Shown here one piece after another: positions 5,050 to 24,489 of a stretch of DNA of 31,562 bases. The notes beneath the pieces were generated by a model. The model was not told the origin of the DNA and made no database searches. It worked only from the letters and a program-made list of their open reading frames with translations. The position numbers were made by a program, and so were the translations under genes. Source of the DNA: a virus. Position 1 is the stretch's first letter. The number at the start of each line of letters is the position of its first letter. The stretch lies in the UHGV virus genome UHGV-0208736, one strand, 5' to 3'.

Positions 5050-5334
5050 TTAACTATAATAGTTAGCTATTAGGTCGTCAACCTGTTTAAACGAACCAAC
5101 GACAAAAACATTTGCGCCACGTTTACGCATACGCTCGTGTTCTCGTAACTGGTGCGGGTCAGGTTTCGTGTTTTCGTCTTTCTTCACCTCTACGAACCAG
5201 ACGGTGCCGCCGGGGAGAATTACCAGCAGGTCGGGGGCGCCGGAACGCCCCTCGTACGAAAGTTTACGAACGAGGCCGCCCAGGGCCTCGAATCGCTCTT
5301 TTGCGTATTTCTGTACGCGTCCCTCTTTAGTCAT
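5050..5334 (-). CDS. VRR-NUC domain nuclease (PD-(D/E)xK superfamily)
   Basis: 94 aa; PDLLVI...VWFVEVKK...PHQLREHERMRKRGANVFVV matches VRR-NUC D...E-x-K pattern. Confidence 0.7.
   Translation of the reverse strand: MTKEGRVQKYAKERFEALGGLVRKLSYEGRSGAPDLLVILPGGTVWFVEVKKDENTKPDPHQLREHERMRKRGANVFVVGSFKQVDDLIANYYS
5053..5081 (-). promoter_or_regulatory. sigma70-type promoter P1 (minus strand): -35 TTGACG, 17-nt spacer, -10 TATAGT; contains 20-bp conserved core AACTATAATAGTTAGCTATT (plus 5052-5071)
   Basis: Reverse complement reads TTGACG-N17-TATAGT; the 20-bp core is identical to 11861-11880 and near-identical to 9362-9381; lies at the 3' end of the VRR-NUC gene immediately upstream of gene 4828..5019. 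Confidence 0.5.
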
Positions 5335-5888: not shown

Positions 5889-8148
5889 AACGGTACACCT
5901 CTTCCCCGGCCCATGTTAGTGGGAACCCTTTGGCCCATTCAGGTAATGAGCATAACAGGTCGCCCATCTCTTTAACCGTGTACTCCGGTGTGTCTGGTGT
6001 TTCGGCGACACACTCATCGTGTACGTGAAGTACAATTGGGTAGCCCGCTGCCTCGACCGTCAGGAGTCCGTTGACCAGTAAATCACGGCACAACGCTTGA
6101 ATGATGTTTTCACACAATTTTCCGCCGTGTGTGTACAAAGTCGTCCACTGGCGGGTGGTCTGATTTTCGCCCTGGTATTTAATGCGAACGTTAGTTGTTA
6201 CGCGCCCATCCTCGTCGGTCTCTTTAGTGACGCTTAAACCTATACCAGGGTAGGACATGATGCGCCCAGACGGCAGTTCCACACACAACCACCAACCCGG
6301 CACAAAGTTACCCTGTCTGTCTTTCTCTTTAGTACGCCAGATGCGAATAGCCCTGTCGCCGTTAAGGCGTACTCTGGCCCCCGCCCAAAACTCTCGTCCC
6401 GGATTTCTGATTGCAGCAATCACCGAATCCTTAAGGTCGTTCCAGAATCTCACTGTTTCCGGATGGGCCTCGCGCCACATGCGCTTGATAGCGTCGCAAG
6501 TGCGCCAGACTTCCTTAGGCAACACGTAAGAGGCCCGTTCGTCCTTTTTACCAGGTTTTGGCGGCCGCTTAGCCTCCTGAATCCGCGCCCATTCATAGCC
6601 TCGGGCAGTGGCGGCCCATATATGGTCAGGGAATGTCCCCCGCATTGTCTCCGTCATTTTAAAGAGGTCCAGCCCATAAGTTTTAGCCATAGTCATGAAG
6701 GCCCCTACACCTCCCTCGTAGCCGAGGCCCAGCTCGCAACATTTCCCGACCTGTCGTAGGTCTTTACGGGTGGCTTTCAGCTCTATAGGATCCATGCCAA
6801 ACATCTTGCCCGCAGTGGCGCAATAAATATCAATCCCCGCGCGGAACGTCTCAAGGGCAGATGTCTCCCCCGCCGTCCAGGCTAACCCACGGCCTTCCAC
6901 GTTCGAGTAGTCGGCAACGAGTAACTTATTACCTTTTTCCGGGATGATGCAGCTGCGGACAGTCGAGGCCGTTAGCTTAGATACATCAAAACGGCGATGC
7001 GCCCGGCCCTTTAAAAGCAAATTGATGCCGAAGGATAGCGGGTTAAGCCTGCGGTTCCAGTCTTCGTCGGACTCCCACGGCTGGCGTACGAGTTTCTTTT
7101 CCTCGTTAGTCGGGTCGTCGTGGTAGTACCCACGCGACAGGTTCTGCGGCTGGAACCCTTTGCCCGCAAATCGTAAAGTGCGCTTTGCCCCACCGTACTG
7201 GATGCAACCACGGCGTCGTCCGTCTTTGGACCGTCCTAGCAGGAGCGGTTTATATTTTGTTGACGCCGTGGAGGCCGCGCCGAGGCGCATCTCAATGATT
7301 GTGCGCGCATCGTTAGGTAAGTCGTCGTCCTCTAGCAAACCTTCGAGCGTTGCTTTCTGCGCATTATAAATATTGTAGGCCGGTGCCAGTTCCCGAAGGA
7401 TTGGCAGGAAGTCTTTGCCCGTTAGCTTCCCGCCAAATTTCGCGCGGGCCTCGTTTTTTAGCTCTTGCTTGTGACGTTCAACTGCCGCGACCGCCGCCTC
7501 AGCAAGAGCCGTATCGACAAAGAAGCCTCGGTCGTTGATTAGCTGGTCCAGTTCCAGTACACGGTCTTCGAACTCAGAGTTACCCCAACGCGGCAGCTTA
7601 TGGAAGACCTCACGCATTGCAGTGATGTCGCTTACGGCGTACTTGATGAACAGCGCCCACTCGTCCGGGTGTGTTTCCGCGGTGTAGCGACGGATTTTGT
7701 AGTTCTTCGGCGTCGGTTTAGAGAAACGCTGAATCAGCGCCTTGCCCCGCTTATCTTTCGCGTTGTCCGCAGATACTCCCAGCACTTCGCATAATGCATC
7801 GAGTGAACCCGGCAGCGCGTGGCGAAACGCCCAAATCATCGTATCAATGGTGTTGCTTACCGGAATATCAAAACCCCAGCAGTGCTTCATGATGAGCCTA
7901 TCGAACATTAAAAAGTTATGGCCCACGATTTTCATACGTCCGCGCATAACATTACGGAGCGCCATGCGTAGGCTTATTGGCATTACTGGTTCGGAAGTGC
8001 AATCCCATACTTCTACTGGACCATCATCAACGGCATACGTACAAATTATAACCTCTGTCGTTGGGTGCTCCGCATACGCATACGACCCGACTTTCTTTAA
8101 GTCTGCTTCGGAGAATGTCTCGGTATCCAGGTATAATAAACTAGTCAT
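5878..8148 (-). CDS. DNA polymerase, family A, with N-terminal 3'-5' exonuclease domain
   Basis: 756 aa; Exo I motif YLDTETFS; polymerase motif A LLVADYSNVEGR; motif C VLHVHDECV; AAGGAA SD upstream of ATG 8148. Confidence 0.85.
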   Translation of the reverse strand: MTSLLYLDTETFSEADLKKVGSYAYAEHPTTEVIICTYAVDDGPVEVWDCTSEPVMPISLRMALRNVMRGRMKIVGHNFLMFDRLIMKHCWGFDIPVSNTIDTMIWAFRHALPGSLDALCEVLGVSADNAKDKRGKALIQRFSKPTPKNYKIRRYTAETHPDEWALFIKYAVSDITAMREVFHKLPRWGNSEFEDRVLELDQLINDRGFFVDTALAEAAVAAVERHKQELKNEARAKFGGKLTGKDFLPILRELAPAYNIYNAQKATLEGLLEDDDLPNDARTIIEMRLGAASTASTKYKPLLLGRSKDGRRRGCIQYGGAKRTLRFAGKGFQPQNLSRGYYHDDPTNEEKKLVRQPWESDEDWNRRLNPLSFGINLLLKGRAHRRFDVSKLTASTVRSCIIPEKGNKLLVADYSNVEGRGLAWTAGETSALETFRAGIDIYCATAGKMFGMDPIELKATRKDLRQVGKCCELGLGYEGGVGAFMTMAKTYGLDLFKMTETMRGTFPDHIWAATARGYEWARIQEAKRPPKPGKKDERASYVLPKEVWRTCDAIKRMWREAHPETVRFWNDLKDSVIAAIRNPGREFWAGARVRLNGDRAIRIWRTKEKDRQGNFVPGWWLCVELPSGRIMSYPGIGLSVTKETDEDGRVTTNVRIKYQGENQTTRQWTTLYTHGGKLCENIIQALCRDLLVNGLLTVEAAGYPIVLHVHDECVAETPDTPEYTVKEMGDLLCSLPEWAKGFPLTWAGEEVYRYAK

Positions 8149-8614
8149 GGCAATAAAATTCCTTATGCAGTTTTTCTCTTAATTTCTTTACCGCGCTTTC
8201 TGCTTCTTCAAGAGTTCCGTAGCTACCAGCATTGTAACTTTTGTAGTTAAAGTGTACCCGCCCATAAAATCGGTTGCCGTTTTTAACTACTCCCTTAACT
8301 CCCGTTCTAGCTCCCTTATTTTTAGCGTTTCGCACATTATCTGCGGTGGTTGCTTTCCTTAGGTTAGAAATCCTATTGTCTAACCTGTCTCGGTTTATGT
8401 GGTCAAGAGGTCCCTCGGGCCATTCACCGTACTCGAAAAACCAAGCAAGCCTGTGGGCCATGTAATATCTGCCCATATAAGGTATTCGCCAGTATCCACT
8501 ACTATTGATGCATCCTGCGATGTCTCCAGGTTTTCCTCGTCTGTACGTAGGTTGTATCCATGTGAATATCCCGGTTTCTCGGTTATAGCTAAGAAAATCT
8601 TTTATATGTTCCAT
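8141..8614 (-). CDS. HNH homing endonuclease with AP2-type domain (start taken at ATG 8614; the track start at 8638 is TTG)
   Basis: HNH core MAHRLAWFFEYGEWPEGPLDHINRDRLDNRISNLR; AP2-like GVKGVVKNGNRFYGRVHFNYKSYNAGSYGTLEEAESA; AT-rich relative to neighbours; stop overlaps polymerase start by 8 nt. Confidence 0.75.
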   Translation of the reverse strand: MEHIKDFLSYNRETGIFTWIQPTYRRGKPGDIAGCINSSGYWRIPYMGRYYMAHRLAWFFEYGEWPEGPLDHINRDRLDNRISNLRKATTADNVRNAKNKGARTGVKGVVKNGNRFYGRVHFNYKSYNAGSYGTLEEAESAVKKLREKLHKEFYCHD

Positions 8615-8626
8615 TCTGACTCCGGT

Positions 8627-8649
8627 AAAAAGGCCCAATGAAGGGCCTT
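8627..8649 (-). terminator. rho-independent terminator on minus strand after the SSB-like gene
   Basis: Minus-strand RNA: AAGGCCC-UUCAUU-GGGCCUU followed by UUUACC; 20 nt downstream of the TAA at 8669-8671. Confidence 0.45.
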
Positions 8650-8668
8650 AGTTAAATTGATTCATATA

Positions 8669-9307: not shown

Positions 9308-9362
9308 ATCTCGATTCCTCAGTTTTCAGTTTACTCCGGGAACTGCCCGGCCAGTGATTAGA

Positions 9363-9392
9363 ACTATAATAGCTAACTATTCGGGTTGTCAA
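9363..9392 (-). promoter_or_regulatory. sigma70-type promoter P2 (minus strand): -35 TTGACA, 18-nt spacer, -10 TATAGT; core AACTATAATAGCTAACTATT (plus 9362-9381)
   Basis: Reverse complement reads TTGACA-N18-TATAGT; the core differs from P1/P3 only by inversion of the central 4 bp; located in the 89-bp intergenic gap upstream of the SSB-like gene. Confidence 0.5.
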
Positions 9393-9570: not shown

Positions 9571-10808
9571 TCTAAATCCTCCTCTGTTACCTGATTCCAC
9601 TCAGGCCGTTTGTCGTCTGTCGTTGCGACACATGGTGCGCCAGGCTTACGGGTAATGAAGTCTTTCAGTTCTTCTTCCGGTATGACTTTAACCGCTTCGG
9701 TCGGCGTCATGAGCACTTCTTTAGTCAGCTTGTAACCGTATTTCTCGTATACCGCCTCTGCATCTTTCCATGCACGATTACCTGGGCGACCCTCAACCAG
9801 TTTGTACCCAGGCACTTTCTTACCGGAATGCAACGCGGCGGCCATAGCTTTTTCAACCTTGTCGATGTGCTGGCGCAGGAACGGCAACTTCTCATACTCA
9901 GCGACGAGTTGCTCTGGTGTCAGTTCCAGCACAAAGTTGTCCCCCAGTTCTTCCGCCAGTACAGAATTAACCGTCTTTGTACGCGCGGCGCACTGTTCTG
10001 AGAACCGGCACCACTGGCAGCCATCGACAGACGGCTTGAAGTCCGACGCTTTCAGGTTCTTCTTGCCACGGAAATAGGCGTCAAGCGCTAACAGCGCCCG
10101 TTTCTGTGCGAACTTAGCAAACAGTTCCAGACCTTCAACCGAGATGTCCCACTCCGAAGCGCCACCAGCGTACGGCTGGAAGATGACCAGACGAACGATT
10201 GTTATGTTATAACGTCTCTTGAGTCGGCGATAAACACCGAGAGCGTAAAGCATAAGCTGCTTGTTTTCTTTCGCTTCGACACGATGCCGTCCTGTTTTAA
10301 GGTCTCCGATGATGAGCATATGCCCGTCGGTGTTCGCCAGTTCCTGTACGGCAACAAGGTCAGCGGTTCCGAACGTCTCAACGCCTTCGTAGCCCGGATG
10401 CAATACCTCAGTAAGATTGACCCGCATTTCCAGCTTGGCGTAAGTCGCTACGTCGATAATCAGTTTGCAGTAGTCGGTGTACTTGCGCACCTGCTCAATC
10501 ATGTCCGCCGTAATCAGTACCGCGCCTTTCATCGGACTGATTAGCGCCTCAATCGGCCCTTTACCTTCATCCAGAACATAAGCACCAACTTCACGCTCTA
10601 ACGGCAGCGCAGTTCCGCGGATATAGGCGTTGAGATGTACCTCAGCTATGGTGTGCATAGCTGTGCCTAATACCGCAGCTTTACCGGACGTGTTAGGGAT
10701 ATCTTTTTCACAGGCCAGTGATGCTGGGCAGGTTAACCACTTTTTAGCACCGGATGGCGACAGTAAGGCGTGCACATCATTATTGCCGCCGCGTTCTTTT
10801 AAAATCAT
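9567..10808 (-). CDS. Cas4/RecB-like PD-(D/E)xK exonuclease with putative Fe-S cysteine cluster and C-terminal extension (start at ATG 10808; the track start at 10823 is GTG)
   Basis: N-terminal Cys (WLTCPASLAC) plus C-terminal C-x2-C-x5-C (CQWCRFSEQC); nuclease-like core IIGDLKTGRH...QLMLYALGVY; GGAG SD upstream; ATG overlaps stop of upstream gene. Confidence 0.6.
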   Translation of the reverse strand: MILKERGGNNDVHALLSPSGAKKWLTCPASLACEKDIPNTSGKAAVLGTAMHTIAEVHLNAYIRGTALPLEREVGAYVLDEGKGPIEALISPMKGAVLITADMIEQVRKYTDYCKLIIDVATYAKLEMRVNLTEVLHPGYEGVETFGTADLVAVQELANTDGHMLIIGDLKTGRHRVEAKENKQLMLYALGVYRRLKRRYNITIVRLVIFQPYAGGASEWDISVEGLELFAKFAQKRALLALDAYFRGKKNLKASDFKPSVDGCQWCRFSEQCAARTKTVNSVLAEELGDNFVLELTPEQLVAEYEKLPFLRQHIDKVEKAMAAALHSGKKVPGYKLVEGRPGNRAWKDAEAVYEKYGYKLTKEVLMTPTEAVKVIPEEELKDFITRKPGAPCVATTDDKRPEWNQVTEEDLE

Positions 10809-11077
10809 GCCCTGTTCTCCCACTGGTCTATTAAATGTCGTGTCTTATGGTCGCAATGTAAGGCCCAGCCATACATCGACTCGAAGACATAAAGGTCAGG
10901 CCTGGCGAAAGTCGTGCGCTTAATCTGCGACACGTGACGGCCTATATCTTTAGGTCGCGGCGCTTTGCCTAAGTACGCCATCTCTTCCATCTGGTGCGCA
11001 CCGGACGGCGCACGCAACAGCCATAGCGCCTCTGTGTTATCCCGACTGTCAACGGCGCGGTAGAGTTGGTAAATCAT
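10805..11077 (-). CDS. hypothetical early protein (90 aa)
   Basis: ORF preceded by conserved initiation cassette ACTGAGGGTCGGAATT-ATG. Confidence 0.45.
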   Translation of the reverse strand: MIYQLYRAVDSRDNTEALWLLRAPSGAHQMEEMAYLGKAPRPKDIGRHVSQIKRTTFARPDLYVFESMYGWALHCDHKTRHLIDQWENRA

Positions 11078-11088
11078 AATTCCGACCC

Positions 11089-11304
11089 TCAGTAGTACGG
11101 TGCGAATTCACCCTTAACGGCGGTACGTACGGACATAAGATTATGTTTTCTGTCCGGGTAATTATCCGCCCACACCAGATTATTATCGTAATCTAGAACG
11201 CCGTACCAACATCCGTTTAATACGAAAAATCGTTGTTCACCCGTGGTTGCCGCGCTTATTTCCACAACGATTTGCTCATTTATCACTTTATATACGTTAC
11301 ACAT
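11089..11304 (-). CDS. hypothetical early protein (71 aa)
   Basis: ORF preceded by conserved initiation cassette ACTGAGGGCCGGAATT-ATG. Confidence 0.45.
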   Translation of the reverse strand: MCNVYKVINEQIVVEISAATTGEQRFFVLNGCWYGVLDYDNNLVWADNYPDRKHNLMSVRTAVKGEFAPYY

Positions 11305-11322
11305 AATTCCGGCCCTCAGTTT

Positions 11323-11346
11323 GTTGCCCTCACGTATGAGGGCAAC
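11323..11346 (-). other. stable intergenic RNA stem-loop (10-bp stem, 4-nt loop) without U-tract
   Basis: GTTGCCCTCA-CGTA-TGAGGGCAAC perfect inverted repeat between the acidic early gene and the next gene; followed by AAACUGAGGG rather than a U-run on the minus-strand RNA. Confidence 0.45.
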
Positions 11347-11359
11347 ATAAGTTAAGTAG

Positions 11360-11830
11360 TTATTCTTCTTCGAAATACTTGTTCTTGATTGCCGTCAGGC
11401 GTTCAAGATATTCTGCAAGGTCTTCATCTTTAATCGCGGCAATCTTCATCTTCTTACCGGTGAACTCTTCCAGCAGTTCATCAGAATCATCGCACGCAGC
11501 ATCGCTTGGGCCCTCGTTAATCGCATCGTCGATAGCCTGAATCTGGTCACGCAGAGACTGGTAATCGACTTCTTCCTTCTCTTCTTCCGGCTCTGGCGCT
11601 GGCTCCTCTACTTTAGCTTTACGAGGCTTGCGTTTCGGCTTCTCTTCTTCTGCGGGTTTAGTGTCGACGATGTCTTCACCTTCGACTGGGATTTCTTTTG
11701 TTGCTTCTTTTGCAACAGTAGGCTCGATTGTTGCAGTTTCCGCAACGACAACCTGTTTTGCACTGTTCGCCGCAATCAGTTCGTGGGCAACTACGAAACG
11801 TTCCAGTAATTTTAAGAATTGGTCTAACAT
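11360..11830 (-). CDS. highly acidic early protein (156 aa), first gene of the early operon; candidate DNA-mimic / anti-restriction or host-takeover factor
   Basis: Very Glu/Asp-rich (EEEKPKRKPRKAKVEEPAPEPEEEKEEVDYQ...DDSDELLEEF...KDEDLAEYLER); strong SD GAGGAGAG; directly downstream of promoter P3. Confidence 0.5.
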   Translation of the reverse strand: MLDQFLKLLERFVVAHELIAANSAKQVVVAETATIEPTVAKEATKEIPVEGEDIVDTKPAEEEKPKRKPRKAKVEEPAPEPEEEKEEVDYQSLRDQIQAIDDAINEGPSDAACDDSDELLEEFTGKKMKIAAIKDEDLAEYLERLTAIKNKYFEEE

Positions 11831-11861
11831 TTGTTTCTCTCCTCTCGTTTGGTATGGGCTA

Positions 11862-11890
11862 ACTATAATAGTTAGCTATTCACATGTCAA
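11862..11890 (-). promoter_or_regulatory. sigma70-type promoter P3 (minus strand): -35 TTGACA, 17-nt spacer, -10 TATAGT; core AACTATAATAGTTAGCTATT (plus 11861-11880)
   Basis: Reverse complement reads TTGACA-N17-TATAGT; 20-bp core identical to P1; about 30 nt upstream of the early operon start codon. Confidence 0.55.
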
Positions 11891-11934
11891 TGGGCTTTTC
11901 TAAAATAATTAATATGGTACTATTCACATATCAA
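11876..11934 (+). promoter_or_regulatory. candidate plus-strand promoter (TTCACA-N16-TAAAAT) with two 15-bp direct repeats CTATTCACAT(G/A)TCAA as putative operator sites
   Basis: Repeats at 11876-11890 and 11920-11934 (14/15 identical, 44 bp apart); repeat 1 overlaps the -35 of both divergent promoters; repeat 2 lies between the predicted TSS and the SD of the HTH gene. Confidence 0.35.
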
Positions 11935-11954: not shown

Positions 11955-12170
11955 ATGCAACCATCTGAACTAGGCATCCGTGTAGAACAACGCCGTAAAG
12001 AACTCGGCCTCTCCCAGCGCCGTCTGGCTGTCCTGGCTGGCGTTTCCCAGGGCGCGATTAACCAGCTGGCACTCGGTGTAACCCAGGACGTCCGCCCGGC
12101 AACGCTGTTTAAACTGGCGGAAGTGCTGGAAGTAGATGCCAAGTGGCTGGCGTTCGGTGAAGGGGCTTAA
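11955..12170 (+). CDS. Cro/C1-type (XRE family) helix-turn-helix transcriptional regulator
   Basis: 71 aa; RKELGLSQRRLAVLAGVSQGAINQLALG is a canonical XRE HTH; SD AAGGAG 8 nt upstream; only plus-strand gene inside the minus-strand module. Confidence 0.75.
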   Translation: MQPSELGIRVEQRRKELGLSQRRLAVLAGVSQGAINQLALGVTQDVRPATLFKLAEVLEVDAKWLAFGEGA

Positions 12171-12188: not shown

Positions 12189-14450
12189 CTATTCCAAATC
12201 TTCCTCGGTTACTATCAGCATCTCATTCGGTTCGTATATTGTCTTCGGAATCTTGTTATCGTTTATGCCCCACGGCAACCGGTATTGCTTAGGTATAGGC
12301 CTGTTGTTGTTATCCAGACCTGAGACGATAATCCCGGCCTCGTGCATCTCCTCCAGTTTCTTTCGAAGGTCGTTATTAGCATTAATTGGTACGCCGTAAC
12401 TATCTTCTTTCGCCGCTTTGACGATAGCTGACATAGAGAACCCTCGTTTATCGTCACCCTGCTCCTGCAATTTACCCAATGCGTAAATAACCGTAGCCTC
12501 TTTGGTGTCCAGTTTCTCGAACTGGCCTACCTTTTCTTTAACGGCTTCCTTCTGTTCGTCGGTCAGACCTTCTACTTTCTTCACGAAGACAGAGAATGCG
12601 TTGAAGTTAACAAAGACATCAATATGCGGATTTCCTGCGTCAAAATCGCGTACATCATCACTACTATACCCTTCCGGAAGACCCATGAAGTTGTGAGTTG
12701 GTTCTTTCTTTTCTGGCGGCTCCGCTATCTGAATCTTCTGTATTACGAACCCTCTGGCTTTTTGCCGTTCTCCGTTTCGGTTCTTTATGTGGTACAGGTT
12801 TATCTCTAAGTTATTGTCGTTGTCCGGCTTATGCAGGAACATCCCGTTGTCGATGGAGTTGTGGAAATCACTACCACCCTTCGGCATCATGCCGTTCTCG
12901 GATGGTACTGTTTCGTCGATGTTTTTAGTCGGGTGCACCATAGCGCCTACCGCGGCGTTAAGCGTCGACGCTATTTCGTTAAGCGCCTGCGCCGCCTCTT
13001 TCATCGACCTGTTGTCGTTCTCGTCAAAACCAGGTATGCAAGTTTGCAGGGTATCAAACGTAACCTTTACAATTTTCTCTTCACCGGCAACACGACGCAT
13101 CATTCTCACCGCCTGGCGGCGCCACACCTCATCGAGTAAGTTACACCCTTCCGCGACACAATCGATGATGTGCAAGCGGTCAAGGCTATCGCCGAGGGCA
13201 ATCTGTAAAGATTTTTTATGCCTCTCGAACGACTGCGCACCTTCTCCAGCGAAAATGAACGCATGCCCTTCAGCAACCTCTGCCCCGCCGAACGCATATC
13301 TTTTTTCGGCAGCAATAGCGGCGTCAATCGCCATACTAAATGTTGACTTACCAGTGTGGGACTTTGCACAAATGTAGAATGATTCGTTAGTCTGCATAAG
13401 ACCGTCCACTACGGAGTAAGCAGGTTCTTTTTCTACTTCCGGCTCGTCTTCAAGGTCTTCAAGCGTGCAAGTTACAGGCTCCTCGTTCTCTGTGCGGTGC
13501 AGTTCTTCAATATCTTCATCCGGTAAATCAGGCAGAGCCGCACGGATGCTATTAATACTGATAGGTTGCTTGTCTACGTTAAGCTCGTCCGGAAGACCGC
13601 ACATACGCAGGGCCAAATGCTGCCGACGGTTTAGCTCAGTGCAAGCGCCATTGTTTGTATGCTGGCAGACAAAGCGCACTTCTTTACCGTCAAGCATGAT
13701 GCTTGTGGAGCCTTTGCCGGTATGCAGATGTTCGTTAGGGCATGGAACTTCGTACCCGCGCCCGGAAGATAAAGCGTCAAGGCCAAGCTCCGCTTCGCAG
13801 AAATGCGCTATATCAGCGTTAAGCCCATGCTCATCGGCAGCAAGTGTCTTAGCTTCACGTTTACGCAGCCCCATCTCTTCGGCTTTCTTGATGTACCGCT
13901 CCGCACGGATAACGCGCCCTTCAGTAACAGTTATCTTTGACTCTTTATGAGGCAGGTAGATAAGGCGGTTGCCGTCTTCGGTGCAGTGGTCGCGCAACGC
14001 TTCGTCTATTTCTAACTCCGCACAAATAGCACGTTGCACCATCCATGCATCGTTAGAGTTAAATGGAGTGCGGGCAGGTACGAGAACGCGGAAAGCGTAG
14101 TCACCGTTTTTACACGCGTGCTGGTGCGACGCCGTTGTGTGCAGAATATTGAAGAACGTCGCGTTCTTGAATTTGCGGGTAAGGTCGCGGTACTGAGTAC
14201 GGTTGAGATGGTCAAAGTCGAACTTAACCACACTATCTTCCAGAATCGCGTTCTTACGGCGACCCCCAACAGGTGCAATTGCTTTCTGCTTAATCTTGGC
14301 AGCGTCGTACTCTTCCTTAGACCACGACGGATCCACGGATAAACGCTTGGATGTATCGCAGACATACTCTACGAACTGCTCCAGCGGCATTTCACGAGCT
14401 ACAGGGTTTTTATCGAATGTGTTGCGCAGTGTCGCAAAAACAATATTCAT
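12189..14450 (-). CDS. DNA primase-helicase-like replication protein: archaeo-eukaryotic primase (AEP)-type N-terminal domain plus P-loop NTPase domain
   Basis: 753 aa; AEP-like motifs KFDFDH (DxD) and TTASHQH (sxH); Walker A AKSHTGKST; Walker-B-like LHIID. Confidence 0.6.
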   Translation of the reverse strand: MNIVFATLRNTFDKNPVAREMPLEQFVEYVCDTSKRLSVDPSWSKEEYDAAKIKQKAIAPVGGRRKNAILEDSVVKFDFDHLNRTQYRDLTRKFKNATFFNILHTTASHQHACKNGDYAFRVLVPARTPFNSNDAWMVQRAICAELEIDEALRDHCTEDGNRLIYLPHKESKITVTEGRVIRAERYIKKAEEMGLRKREAKTLAADEHGLNADIAHFCEAELGLDALSSGRGYEVPCPNEHLHTGKGSTSIMLDGKEVRFVCQHTNNGACTELNRRQHLALRMCGLPDELNVDKQPISINSIRAALPDLPDEDIEELHRTENEEPVTCTLEDLEDEPEVEKEPAYSVVDGLMQTNESFYICAKSHTGKSTFSMAIDAAIAAEKRYAFGGAEVAEGHAFIFAGEGAQSFERHKKSLQIALGDSLDRLHIIDCVAEGCNLLDEVWRRQAVRMMRRVAGEEKIVKVTFDTLQTCIPGFDENDNRSMKEAAQALNEIASTLNAAVGAMVHPTKNIDETVPSENGMMPKGGSDFHNSIDNGMFLHKPDNDNNLEINLYHIKNRNGERQKARGFVIQKIQIAEPPEKKEPTHNFMGLPEGYSSDDVRDFDAGNPHIDVFVNFNAFSVFVKKVEGLTDEQKEAVKEKVGQFEKLDTKEATVIYALGKLQEQGDDKRGFSMSAIVKAAKEDSYGVPINANNDLRKKLEEMHEAGIIVSGLDNNNRPIPKQYRLPWGINDNKIPKTIYEPNEMLIVTEEDLE

Positions 14451-16667: not shown

Positions 16668-17717
16668 ATGGCAATTACCACTATCGGCGATATCGTAACT
16701 GGCAACATCCCGGTCCTTGCGTCTTATATGACAGAGGACCCGGTAGAAAAAACCGCGTTCTTCCAGTCCGGTATTCTCACCCCTACCCCGTACGCTGCCG
16801 AGATTGCTCGCGGTCCGTCCAACATCGCTAATATCCCTTTCTGGAAAGCGATTGATACATCTATCGAACCGAACTACTCGAACGACGTATACCAGGACAT
16901 CGCAACCCCGCGTAATGTCCAGACCGGTGAGATGATGGCTCGCGTAGCGTACCTGAACGAAGGTTTCGGTCAGGCGGACCTGACGGTAGAACTGACCAGT
17001 CAGAACCCGCTGCAATCCGTAGCGTCCCGTCTGGATAACTTCTGGCAGCGCCAGGCACAACGTCGTCTGATTGCTACCGCGCTCGGCCTGTACAACGACA
17101 ACGTAGCTGCGACCGATGCGTACCACGAGCAGAATGACATGGTTATCGACGTGTCTGCTACTATGGGCTTCGACTCTGGCGCGTTCATCGACGCTACTCA
17201 GACTATGGGTGATGCGCTGATGGGTAACGGTGGTGAAGTGCTGGGTGCTATCGCGATGCACAGCTTCGTTTATGCGCAGGCCCGTAAGCAGCAGCTTATC
17301 GACTTCATCCGCGATGCGGACAACAACACCATGTTCGCCACCTACCAGGGCTATCGTGTGATTGTTGATGACAGCATGACCGTAGTCGGTACTGGCGGCA
17401 GCCGTAAGTTCATCTCCATTATCTTCGGCAACGGCGCTATCGGTTACGGCGAAGGTAACCCGGTCAAACCGCTGCACTACGAGTACGAAGCGTCCCGTGG
17501 TAACGGTGGTGGTGTCGAAACCCTGTGGACCCGTAAGACCTGGTTACTGCATCCGTTCGGCTACAGCTTCACCAGCGCAGTAATCACCGGCAACGGCACC
17601 GAGACCGTCGCACGCTCCGCTTCCTGGCAGGACCTGGCGAACGCCTCCAACTGGAACCGTGTGGTTGAGCGTAAGCACGTGCCGATTGCCTTCCTGGTAA
17701 CTGGTGTAGGCGCTTAA
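16668..17717 (+). CDS. major capsid protein
   Basis: 349 aa; follows scaffold with SD GAGGAA; strongly biased codon usage; followed by strong UUCG-loop terminator. Confidence 0.65.
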   Translation: MAITTIGDIVTGNIPVLASYMTEDPVEKTAFFQSGILTPTPYAAEIARGPSNIANIPFWKAIDTSIEPNYSNDVYQDIATPRNVQTGEMMARVAYLNEGFGQADLTVELTSQNPLQSVASRLDNFWQRQAQRRLIATALGLYNDNVAATDAYHEQNDMVIDVSATMGFDSGAFIDATQTMGDALMGNGGEVLGAIAMHSFVYAQARKQQLIDFIRDADNNTMFATYQGYRVIVDDSMTVVGTGGSRKFISIIFGNGAIGYGEGNPVKPLHYEYEASRGNGGGVETLWTRKTWLLHPFGYSFTSAVITGNGTETVARSASWQDLANASNWNRVVERKHVPIAFLVTGVGA

Positions 17718-17732
17718 GGTTAAGCTATAATC

Positions 17733-17760
17733 GAGAGGGACTTCGGTCCCTCTTTTCATT
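17733..17760 (+). terminator. rho-independent terminator after major capsid gene
   Basis: AGAGGGAC-TTCG-GTCCCTCT hairpin followed by TTTCATTT. Confidence 0.6.
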
Positions 17761-18436: not shown

Positions 18437-18472
18437 TACAACGGCCCTTCGGGGCCGTAATAAGGAAAGGTC

Positions 18473-18652
18473 ATGGCAGATAATTATGTAATCCGCGAAA
18501 AGTACACCCACGTTGATGTTGTTAACGGTCAGGTGATGCCTGTTCGCGGGGTTGTAGGAGCGGATGAACTGGTTGCTACCCAACCGGACAACGAAGAAGC
18601 GCACAACAACGGCGGTGGTACTAAGCGTCGTCGCCGTAAATCAGAGGAATAA
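18473..18652 (+). CDS. unannotated 59-aa protein with basic C-terminus (…GGGTKRRRRKSEE)
   Basis: ATG with SD AAGGAAAGG; fills the gap between Ig-like gene and connector gene; one residue below track cutoff. Confidence 0.4.
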   Translation: MADNYVIREKYTHVDVVNGQVMPVRGVVGADELVATQPDNEEAHNNGGGTKRRRRKSEE

Positions 18653-22246: not shown

Positions 22247-22252
22247 AACTAA

Positions 22253-22276
22253 GGCCCCTTTCGGGGCCTTTTTCTT
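22253..22276. terminator. bidirectional rho-independent terminator between major tail gene and the minus-strand accessory island
   Basis: GGCCCC-TTTC-GGGGCC followed by TTTTTCTT (plus); on minus strand the same hairpin is followed by UUAGUUUUAU. Confidence 0.6.
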
Positions 22277-24432: not shown

Positions 24433-24489
24433 TTGGTGTAAGTGAATAGTACCCTATTATATTGGGGTGCGCAAGTAATGTGATAGAAT
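24433..24489. promoter_or_regulatory. divergent promoter region: plus-strand TTGGTG-N16-TATTAT and TTGGGG-N16-TAGAAT; minus-strand TATAAT (plus 24456-24461) for the accessory island
   Basis: Seen directly; located in the 167-bp gap between the island and the tail chaperone gene; the minus -35 (ATCACA) is weak. Confidence 0.35.

Follow-up and report, generated by a model that had tools for sequence, protein, structure and literature searches.

Introduction

The modular theory of lambdoid phage evolution holds that short boundary, or linker, sequences shared between genomes permit homologous exchange of non-homologous genes. Here we describe a locus in the early operon of the virus genome UHGV-0208736, whose whole analysed stretch of 31,562 nucleotides (nt) we call the window. 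The locus consists of an intercistronic hairpin followed by a translation-initiation cassette of 19 nt, and the cassette occurs twice, once on each side of a small optional gene. We propose, with moderate confidence, that the cassette acts as a short-homology crossover junction for the genes that occupy this slot, beside a hairpin that is selected separately. As with the lambdoid linkers, novel joints at this locus fall exactly between genes. Lambdoid linkers lie between functional modules of temperate phages, whereas the present element is a repeat the size of a ribosome-binding site (RBS) inside a single operon of a virulent-type siphophage, where it brackets one ORFan.

Intercistronic stem-loops that stabilize mRNA, such as REP-type and puf-operon hairpins, and the 5' hairpins that block RNase E provide a second point of comparison. 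The hairpin described here resembles the mRNA-stabilizing stem-loops in being stable and GC-rich, in lacking a U-tract, in lying between cistrons soon after a stop codon, and in conserving structure over sequence. Its function here is putative, and it lies only 2-6 nt from the next Shine-Dalgarno (SD) sequence, a proximity that suggests an additional insulating role.

The promoter-early stem-loops (PeSLs) of T4-type phages have been described by Arbiol et al. (2010, PMC2839356) and Comeau et al. (2014, PMC4122927). PeSLs and the present element both combine a short intergenic stem-loop with an SD sequence and a start codon, and both occur next to small ORFans where the genome is plastic. Copies flank ORFans in both cases, and recombination between copies yields insertions, deletions and replacements that preserve the expression signals, here as judged by comparison of relatives. 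A PeSL carries a strong sigma-70 promoter and an effective terminator stem-loop, whereas the present element has neither a promoter nor a U-tract. We found no promoter-like site between the stop codon of the upstream gene, which codes for a 156-amino acid (aa) protein, and either cassette ATG; the closest coding-strand sites are 11890->11862 and, as a weak 9/12 match, one inside the optional open reading frame (ORF). PeSLs number about 50 per genome over hyperplastic regions, and the present cassette has one or two copies at one locus. Finally, PeSL mini-circles have been shown physically, whereas the present unit is defined by sequence comparison. By analogy, the cassette can be regarded as functionally similar to the T4 PeSLs.

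The start-associated sequences (SAS) of Cluster K mycobacteriophages, and their extended form (ESAS), were described by Pope et al. (2011, PMC3203893). An SAS, like our cassette, is a conserved asymmetric motif with an SD core, placed a few nt before the ATG of non-structural genes of different families. The upstream gene's stop codon sometimes lies inside the motif, and in some cases an inverted repeat lies immediately upstream. ESAS inverted repeats do not show RNA-type covariation (PMC3203893). The 13-bp SAS consensus, GGGATAGGAGCCC, is unrelated to the cassette, ACTGAGGGYCGGAATT. SAS occur in 10-19 copies per genome across the non-structural half, whereas the cassette belongs to one locus and varies in its spacer half. 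No part in gene exchange was suggested for SAS, whereas we read the cassette as an exchange junction. Our search of the accessible Kagunavirus, Jerseyvirus and Guernseyvirinae literature found no description of the hairpin-cassette element.

A ribosome-binding cassette present twice in the early operon

At the DNA level, the window shares about 90% identity with Kagunavirus phages (K1G/K1ind group, Guernseyvirinae), with Salmonella Jerseyviruses as more distant matches and 446 matching GenBank records in all. By this similarity, the window is a Kagunavirus-like phage. Genes around the locus are transcribed from the minus strand, and the elements at its center are as follows.

11302-11320, minus strand: cassette copy 1, ACUGAGGGCCGGAAUU-AUG, which drives the 71-aa ORF (11089-11304)
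11075-11093, minus strand: cassette copy 2, ACUGAGGGUCGGAAUU-AUG, which drives the 90-aa ORF (10805-11077)
11089-11304, minus strand: the 71-aa ORFan, optional, with no Pfam or PHROG match
11094-11320, minus strand: the 227-nt indel unit, made up of one cassette copy and the body of the 71-aa ORF, as delimited by the empty site in phage EcoPhCCP1

The 19-mer ACTGAGGG(C/T)CGGAATTATG, start codon included, has exactly two matches in the window, both on the minus (coding) strand. The chance expectation is 0.01 matches and none of 100 shuffles reached two, so the nearly identical sequence that a first-pass annotation had noticed before two consecutive early genes is real. No further site in the window matches the cassette at four or fewer mismatches. 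Without their ATG, the copies occupy 11305-11320 and 11078-11093. The first-pass coordinates (11305-11322 and 11078-11096) had located genuine sites but misplaced their upstream ends by about 3 nt. The copies lie 227 nt apart and differ at a single base, C at 11312 versus T at 11085 (15/16 identity). GAGG stands 9 nt ahead of the AUG in both, and this SD core falls at 11314-11317 in copy 1. The UGA stop codon of the 71-aa ORF (11089-11091) is inside copy 2, in the reading UAC UAC UGA GGG. The spacer half of the cassette is freely polymorphic among relatives, and 15/16 identity within one genome therefore points to copying. The same polymorphism led us to reject convergent selection as the source of the identity.

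A proposed third copy, ahead of the gene for a single-stranded DNA-binding (SSB)-like protein, did not hold up. The site, AAACTGAGGAA, is present at 9315-9325, and it has only the 9-mer AAACTGAGG (AAACUGAGG) in common with copy 1. This 9-mer occurs twice against 0.24 expected, one occurrence being the query itself, and the bare ACTGAGG occurs five times against 2.6 expected. Downstream of the SD, the site is unrelated to the cassette, and it is not conserved: most relatives have AAAAGCGAGAAATC (AAAAGCGAGAAAUC) in its place. The likeness is thus at chance level; we rejected the site as a cassette copy and attribute its similarity to ordinary Shine-Dalgarno resemblance.

The complete genome of the relative VIPECOTH07 has two cassette sites at four or fewer mismatches, and 21 IMG/VR relatives have one per contig. 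Apart from contig L015, which carries the 71-aa gene, scans of viral and metagenome collections for the 15-mer CCGTACTACTGAGGG gave chance matches only. A dispersed, genome-wide motif of the SAS or PeSL kind was rejected, as the cassette is confined to one slot with one or two copies per genome. VIPECOTH07 also has a weak look-alike, ACTAAGGGTCGAAAATAATG, with five mismatches, at 14112-14131, just ahead of its DNA polymerase gene; it is absent from the window.

An optional gene bounded by direct repeats

The 71-aa gene is rare. It was found in 5 of 50,697 GenBank phage records and one IMG/VR contig, and in a collection of 5.8 billion proteins it forms four clusters, all in Kagunavirus context. 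In each of the 10 carriers the gene is intact at exactly 71 codons and has cassette copies on both sides (eight distinct configurations). It exists as two alleles, A and B, with about 66% DNA identity (about 34% divergence) and with 5' and 3' ends that are conserved in both. Across carriers, copy 2 drives three different genes: the 90-aa gene, a 67-aa gene or a DUF2591 gene. The carrier arrangements are listed here.

Window, L198 and L199: type II hairpin, 71-aa allele A, copy 2 ahead of the 90-aa gene
VIPECOTH07: type I hairpin, 71-aa allele A, copy 2 ahead of the DUF2591 gene
L200: type I hairpin, 71-aa allele A, copy 2 ahead of the 67-aa gene
L015, JSSK01, BUCT825 and XY1: type I hairpin, 71-aa allele B, copy 2 ahead of the 67-aa gene
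L201: type I hairpin, 71-aa allele B, copy 2 ahead of the 90-aa gene

All four carrier contexts were also found without the 71-aa unit. EcoPhCCP1 represents the empty site of the window, with an identical type II hairpin and the cassette directly ahead of the 90-aa gene. Such empty sites define the polymorphism as a discrete 227-nt unit bounded by a direct repeat.

The unit occurs in shuffled combinations with its surroundings. All four gametes are seen for 71-aa allele versus downstream gene (A-90, A-67, B-67 and B-90), and all four are likewise seen for hairpin type versus first gene. The hairpin region of the window is 95-98% identical to contig L001 and to EcoPhCCP1, both of which lack the 71-aa gene. 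The 71-aa gene of the window, in turn, reaches 92-99% identity only with L198, L199 and VIPECOTH07, and has 66% identity to allele B. By these comparisons, the window is a mosaic across the cassette.

A variable slot behind the hairpin and cassette

We surveyed the locus in relatives by two scans of IMG/VR. An exact-match scan for the cassette gave 21 contigs. A second scan, anchored on the 3' end of the 156-aa gene and thus unbiased with respect to hairpin and cassette, gave 45 contigs. The anchor-scan contigs and the GenBank loci together provided 56 junctions, and later additions brought the total to more than 60.

Nearly all Kagunaviruses have, after the hairpin, the sequence (U/A)AAC(U/A/G)GAGGG(U) followed by a polymorphic spacer of 6-7 nt. 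Spacer variants near the AUG include CGGAAUU, CGGAAAU, CGGGAUU, CGUAAUU and CAGAAAU, among others. One cassette per genome is normal, and a second full copy is found only with the 71-aa gene. In the 21 contigs from the first scan, a single cassette follows the hairpin and precedes a 90-aa, 67-aa, 71-aa or DUF2591 gene. Across relatives, the first gene behind hairpin and cassette belongs to at least seven families. Its occupants are the 90-aa gene (the commonest), the 67-aa gene, the 71-aa gene, DUF2591/NinX-like genes of 94-128 aa, a 69-75-aa gene, a 54-aa gene, a 31-aa remnant and the downstream nuclease gene itself.

These results bear on the earlier suggestion that the repeat is a reused initiation module marking junctions where early genes are exchanged. 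Reuse is borne out, in that the same hairpin and cassette precede at least seven unrelated first genes in relatives. Comparing gene content at these junctions, as the first-pass annotation had advised, reveals exchange of early genes in the form of filled and empty sites, four gametes and a mosaic window. Loss of the cassette in relatives had been named as a possible refutation, and the cassette proved to be conserved. The suggestion is valid for one slot; one or two copies per genome do not make a general early-gene module.

The locus also lies where homology between relatives breaks up. Of a 1.2-kilobase query, most relatives cover only about 75-80%, split into two to four pieces. For most Salmonella Jerseyviruses, megablast homology stops at about window position 11357, at the stop codon of the 156-aa gene. 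This fragmentation, together with the loss of homology at the stop codon, places the hairpin and cassette on a mosaic boundary.

Not every junction in the slot is made by the full cassette. After an inserted 67-aa or DUF2591 gene, a different junction leads to the 90-aa gene; it is either cUGUGAGGGUAAAGAA-AUG or an AUGA overlap and lies within the end of the inserted gene. Some RBSs have a hybrid appearance. In L040 (SS3e-like) the sequence is ACUGAGGGU+AAAGAA (ACTGAGGGT+AAAGAA), and in L027 (FSL SP-101) it is ACUGAGGGU+AGAAGA (ACTGAGGGT+AGAAGA), before the nuclease gene. L043 has GGAGGGUAGAAGA (GGAGGGTAGAAGA) before the nuclease gene. The hybrid RBSs of L040 and SP-101 fit gene deletions by recombination at the GAGGGT core. 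These sequences suggest that the shorter GAGGGU core (6-7 nt), common to successive junctions, also mediates gene loss.

Exchange at the cassette and competing explanations

The sequences upstream of the two copies are unrelated, being the hairpin for copy 1 and the end of the 71-aa gene for copy 2. The cassette is thus the only homology able to place the unit before different genes. In the model we favor, the cassette provides the SD and spacer for whichever gene comes first after the conserved hairpin in this replication-module operon, and its position is the fixed left boundary of a hypervariable slot in which small accessory genes reside. Where two copies are present, as in the window, the 3' end of the 71-aa ORFan is fused to a second cassette, giving a unit bracketed by direct repeats. 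During co-infection, recombination in the 16-19 nt of homology would insert, delete or re-pair the 227-nt unit, and the GAGGGU core could serve in the same role at other junctions. Every recombination product would keep a working ribosome site. A PD-(D/E)XK exonuclease and a Gp2.5-like annealing protein, both encoded downstream, might promote recombination; their role as catalysts is speculative. Copy 1 would support de novo initiation after the hairpin. Copy 2 would probably act through termination-reinitiation coupling, because the stop codon of the 71-aa ORF overlaps its SD.

Several points weigh against this model. We infer the recombination mechanism from comparative patterns only. Repeated deletion between direct repeats, starting from a few ancestral arrangements, can also yield four gametes, and active insertion is unproven. 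Some crossovers could lie outside the cassette, in the conserved 36-nt 3' tract with which the 71-aa gene ends or within genes on either side. A full second cassette is particular to the 71-aa family; other junctions link the 67-aa and DUF2591 genes to the 90-aa gene, and the cassette is therefore not the general exchange mechanism of the slot. Sampling is a further concern, since a single metagenome supplies many of the IMG/VR contigs, which makes them non-independent, and individual inspection covered a minority of the 446 GenBank relatives.

One alternative is that the repeat is a passive scar. A single ancient illegitimate insertion of the 71-aa gene would have duplicated the RBS, the copies would merely have been inherited with no part in later exchanges, and the diversity of the slot would stem from unrelated events. 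This history agrees with the restriction of the full second copy to the 71-aa gene, with the different junctions of other insertions, and with the rarity of the gene (5/50,697 GenBank phage records, four protein clusters). We nevertheless consider it unlikely. One and the same junction of 71-aa gene and cassette stands before three different genes. Alleles A and B are each found with the 90-aa and with the 67-aa gene, the unit is present in some genomes and absent from others for either hairpin type, and the window is mosaic across the cassette. Without crossovers in or next to the cassette, these combinations would require several independent, base-precise events.

Another possibility is that the cassette is a regulatory operator. 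A phage or host factor would bind it, perhaps together with the hairpin, and control translation of the first slot gene, with copy 2 extending this control to the next gene. The 5' half, AACUGAGGG, and the hairpin are much more conserved than their surroundings, as an operator would be, and there is a likeness to the Cluster K mycobacteriophage SAS, to which a factor was proposed to bind (PMC3203893). The distribution of the cassette makes such a role improbable. Its AUG-proximal half is freely polymorphic, there are only one or two sites per genome, and the genes that it drives are unrelated and dispensable. Phages SETP3 and Jersey retain the hairpin yet have unrelated RBSs, and no candidate RNA-binding protein was identified.

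A bolder extension of the exchange model, which we regard as a long shot, treats the 227-nt unit as a self-contained recombinational gene cassette. Crossover between the repeats would free a mini-circle of one cassette and the ORF, which could re-enter any co-infecting phage at its single cassette through the phage's own exonuclease and annealing-protein pair. If true, this would amount to integrase-free, integron-like circulation of ORFans among Kagunaviruses, with the conserved hairpin both marking and insulating the landing pad.

The intercistronic hairpin

The hairpin precedes copy 1 and follows a short spacer behind the 156-aa gene.

11323-11346, minus strand: the type II intercistronic hairpin, GUUGCCCUCA-UACG-UGAGGGCAAC, identified by folding and separated from copy 1 by two A residues
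11347-11359, minus strand: an AU-rich 13-nt spacer from stop codon to hairpin, CUACUUAACUUAU, identified from sequence

The perfect 10-bp stem with a 4-nt loop and no U-tract that the first-pass annotation described at this site is confirmed at 11323-11346. The stem extends to 11 bp if the flanking U11347-A11322 pair is counted, the loop is UACG, and neither strand has a U-tract. At -17.9 kcal/mol, the hairpin ranks third in stability among the perfect stem-loops of the window and is the strongest of the intergenic ones that lack a T-rich tail. The remaining strong hairpins between genes are followed by 5-6 T within 8 nt and resemble ordinary terminators.

All 56 junctions have a hairpin, 6-13 nt past the stop codon of the 156-aa gene. 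Type I, GCGGCC-UUCG-GGCCGC, is invariant at its 12 stem positions in 55/55 junctions (42 distinct strings), whereas the 7-nt spacer upstream of it has 20 variants among the same 55 junctions. Its loop is UUCG in 51 of the 55, UCCG in three and UUAG in one, closed by a C-G pair. Type I is also kept in SETP3 and Jersey, which have unrelated RBSs, no cassette and no variable slot, so the function of the hairpin must be independent of the cassette. Type II, found in about 10 GenBank records, is unrelated to type I in sequence and lies in the same position. In its seven distinct variants, 94.8% of cells are paired, compared with 38-53% in slid-partner controls. One of its pairs varies as G-C, U-A or C-G, and two C->U changes form U.G wobbles on the sense strand that would be A.C mismatches on the opposite strand. 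These patterns support the view that the hairpin is a selected sense-strand RNA structure.

This view also has points against it. The covariation is thin, with one fully compensatory pair in seven sequences. L199 has a mismatch in the stem, and its loop, like that of ORH_001, is inverted to CGUA, which indicates that a UNCG loop is not essential. The window loop has the context A(UACG)U, compared with C(UUCG)G in type I. In L199 (Logan ERR10418663) and L203 (ORH_001), the inverted loop is the reverse complement of UACG between unchanged arms, a flip-flop inversion that hints at DNA-level hairpin or cruciform events at the site.

Our searches found no Rfam match for the hairpin at E<=1, and a terminator scan flagged neither type. 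The tail after the hairpin is AAACUGAGG in type II (the window) and UUUAACUG in type I. We also weighed sequestration of the SD, either by the 5' arm of type II, in which GCCCUCA is complementary to UGAGGGC, or by the upstream spacer, and set it aside: the ensemble is dominated by the local 10-bp hairpin, and the spacer bases that could pair with the SD are not conserved. The hairpin is probably an mRNA stability or insulating element rather than a terminator or RNase III site. It would most likely act as a barrier to 3' decay that stabilizes the message of the upstream 156-aa gene, or mark a processing point, and also act as an insulator that keeps the adjacent SD single-stranded and free of upstream pairing.

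A leaky intrinsic terminator or attenuator would reduce transcription past the 156-aa gene in the manner of the T4 PeSL stem-loop. The type I hairpin has a GC-rich 6-bp stem and a cUUCGg loop followed by UUUA, it sits directly behind the first gene of the operon, and PeSL stem-loops were shown to terminate (PMC2839356). The tail of type II has no U-run, however, and that of type I has just three U. The scan that flagged neither type contrasts with the 5-6 T in the 8 nt after other strong intergenic hairpins, and for the downstream, replication-associated nuclease gene no separate promoter is predicted before 9392. We give this reading little credence for want of a U-tract in either hairpin type.

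A perfect duplex between two cistrons of a phage early operon is loosely similar to the RNase III sites of the T7 early region, but E. coli RNase III substrates span about two helical turns, often with internal loops and with a minimum of about 11 bp, whereas the window stem has 10-11 bp and the dominant homologous hairpin (the 55 of type I) only 6 bp. Such a stem is too short for the shared hairpin function to depend on RNase III, and we reject this reading as very improbable.

Implications for mosaicism and phage engineering

The locus is a tidy, unsurprising case of phage mosaicism, of modest specialist interest. Current ideas stand, as it is already established that mosaic joints fall at gene boundaries and that cassettes can mediate shuffling. 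What the locus adds is an example, resolved to the base, of how a phage may gain and lose ORFans with operon expression intact, where the homology for exchange would be supplied by the ribosome-binding region itself. It would provide a natural, repeatedly used landing pad in Kagunavirus and Jerseyvirus genomes, with at least seven payload families tolerated behind the hairpin and cassette, which is of practical use to those who engineer these phages, widely applied in therapy and biocontrol. From the direct repeats, one would expect stocks to lose the 71-aa gene by deletions of exactly 227 nt. The hairpin, for its part, offers a clean test case of how intercistronic stem-loops that lack a U-tract tune expression in phage operons.

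Other features of the early operon

The genes flanking the slot belong to one minus-strand operon, whose main features are given below.

11862-11890, minus strand: a sigma-70-like early promoter, TTGACA-17-TATAGT (11/12 matches), which heads the operon that holds the element
11360-11830, minus strand: the first gene of the operon, coding for the 156-aa acidic protein (phrog_3127), identified as an ORF with a PHROG match
10805-11077, minus strand: the 90-aa gene (phrog_4965), the commonest occupant directly behind the cassette

The operon promoter at 11890->11862 is conserved in the relative L002. The 156-aa, 90-aa and 71-aa proteins have no Pfam domain, and the PHROG families involved (phrog_3127 and phrog_4965) are without known function. 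The end of the 90-aa gene overlaps the start of the PD-(D/E)XK/DUF2800 nuclease gene. A second minus-strand promoter, at 9392->9363, is followed by the gene for an Enc34/Gp2.5-like ssDNA-binding protein. The nuclease and Gp2.5-like/Enc34 ssDNA-binding genes are adjacent, just downstream of the locus.

Mosaicism extends to the 156-aa gene. Nearly all relatives show 90-94% identity in its 3' half, and identity in its 5' half ranges from 65% to 94%, which suggests that it harbors a further, internal recombination boundary. At 8141-8638 on the minus strand, between the SSB-like and DNA polymerase genes, there is a gene for an HNH_3 endonuclease that appears to start with TTG. VIPECOTH07 has no HNH_3 gene there, and EcoPhCCP1 has an HNH gene instead between the 90-aa gene and the nuclease gene. 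Mobile HNH genes thus appear to occupy differing junctions within one operon.

A 21-nt near-palindromic repeat, TAACTATAATAGTTAGCTATT, occurs at plus-strand coordinates 5051-5071, 9361-9381 and 11860-11880, as two exact copies and one of 86% identity. In every case the repeat overlaps a near-consensus sigma-70 promoter on the minus strand, at the promoter's spacer and -10 element (5081->5053, 9392->9363 and 11890->11862, respectively). The repeat is probably a shared early promoter/operator for a divergent 71-aa helix-turn-helix (XRE/DicA-like) repressor encoded at 11955-12170. A 21-nt inverted pair with 90% complementarity, TAATATGGTACTATTCACATA at 11910-11930 and TAAGTGAATAGTACCCTATTA at 24439-24459, matches tgAATAGTa-ccTATTat-T, the 'phage promoter' consensus predicted by PHIRE in Kagunavirus fBC-Eco01 (PMC9825357). 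The complete genome of VIPECOTH07 has no annotated phage RNA polymerase gene.

Other hairpins in the window

The late operon has, at 18441-18458 on the plus strand, another intercistronic cUUCGg hairpin that lacks a U-tract, ACGGCCC-UUCG-GGGCCGU. It begins 4 nt past the stop codon of a Hoc-like decoration gene and ends 5 nt before an AAGGA SD, with the AUG at 18474. This layout of stop codon, hairpin, SD and AUG matches that of the early-operon hairpin. A 9-bp UUCG hairpin with a T-rich tail, at 17733-17754 on the plus strand, directly follows the major head protein gene (16668-17717) and is likely a terminator or attenuator that would raise capsid mRNA over that of downstream genes. Three related GC-rich hairpins, at 2239-2264, 8627-8653 and 22247-22273, have a AACTAAGGCCC core in common, with T-runs on one strand or on both, and resemble partly bidirectional intrinsic terminators that are reused where operons end.

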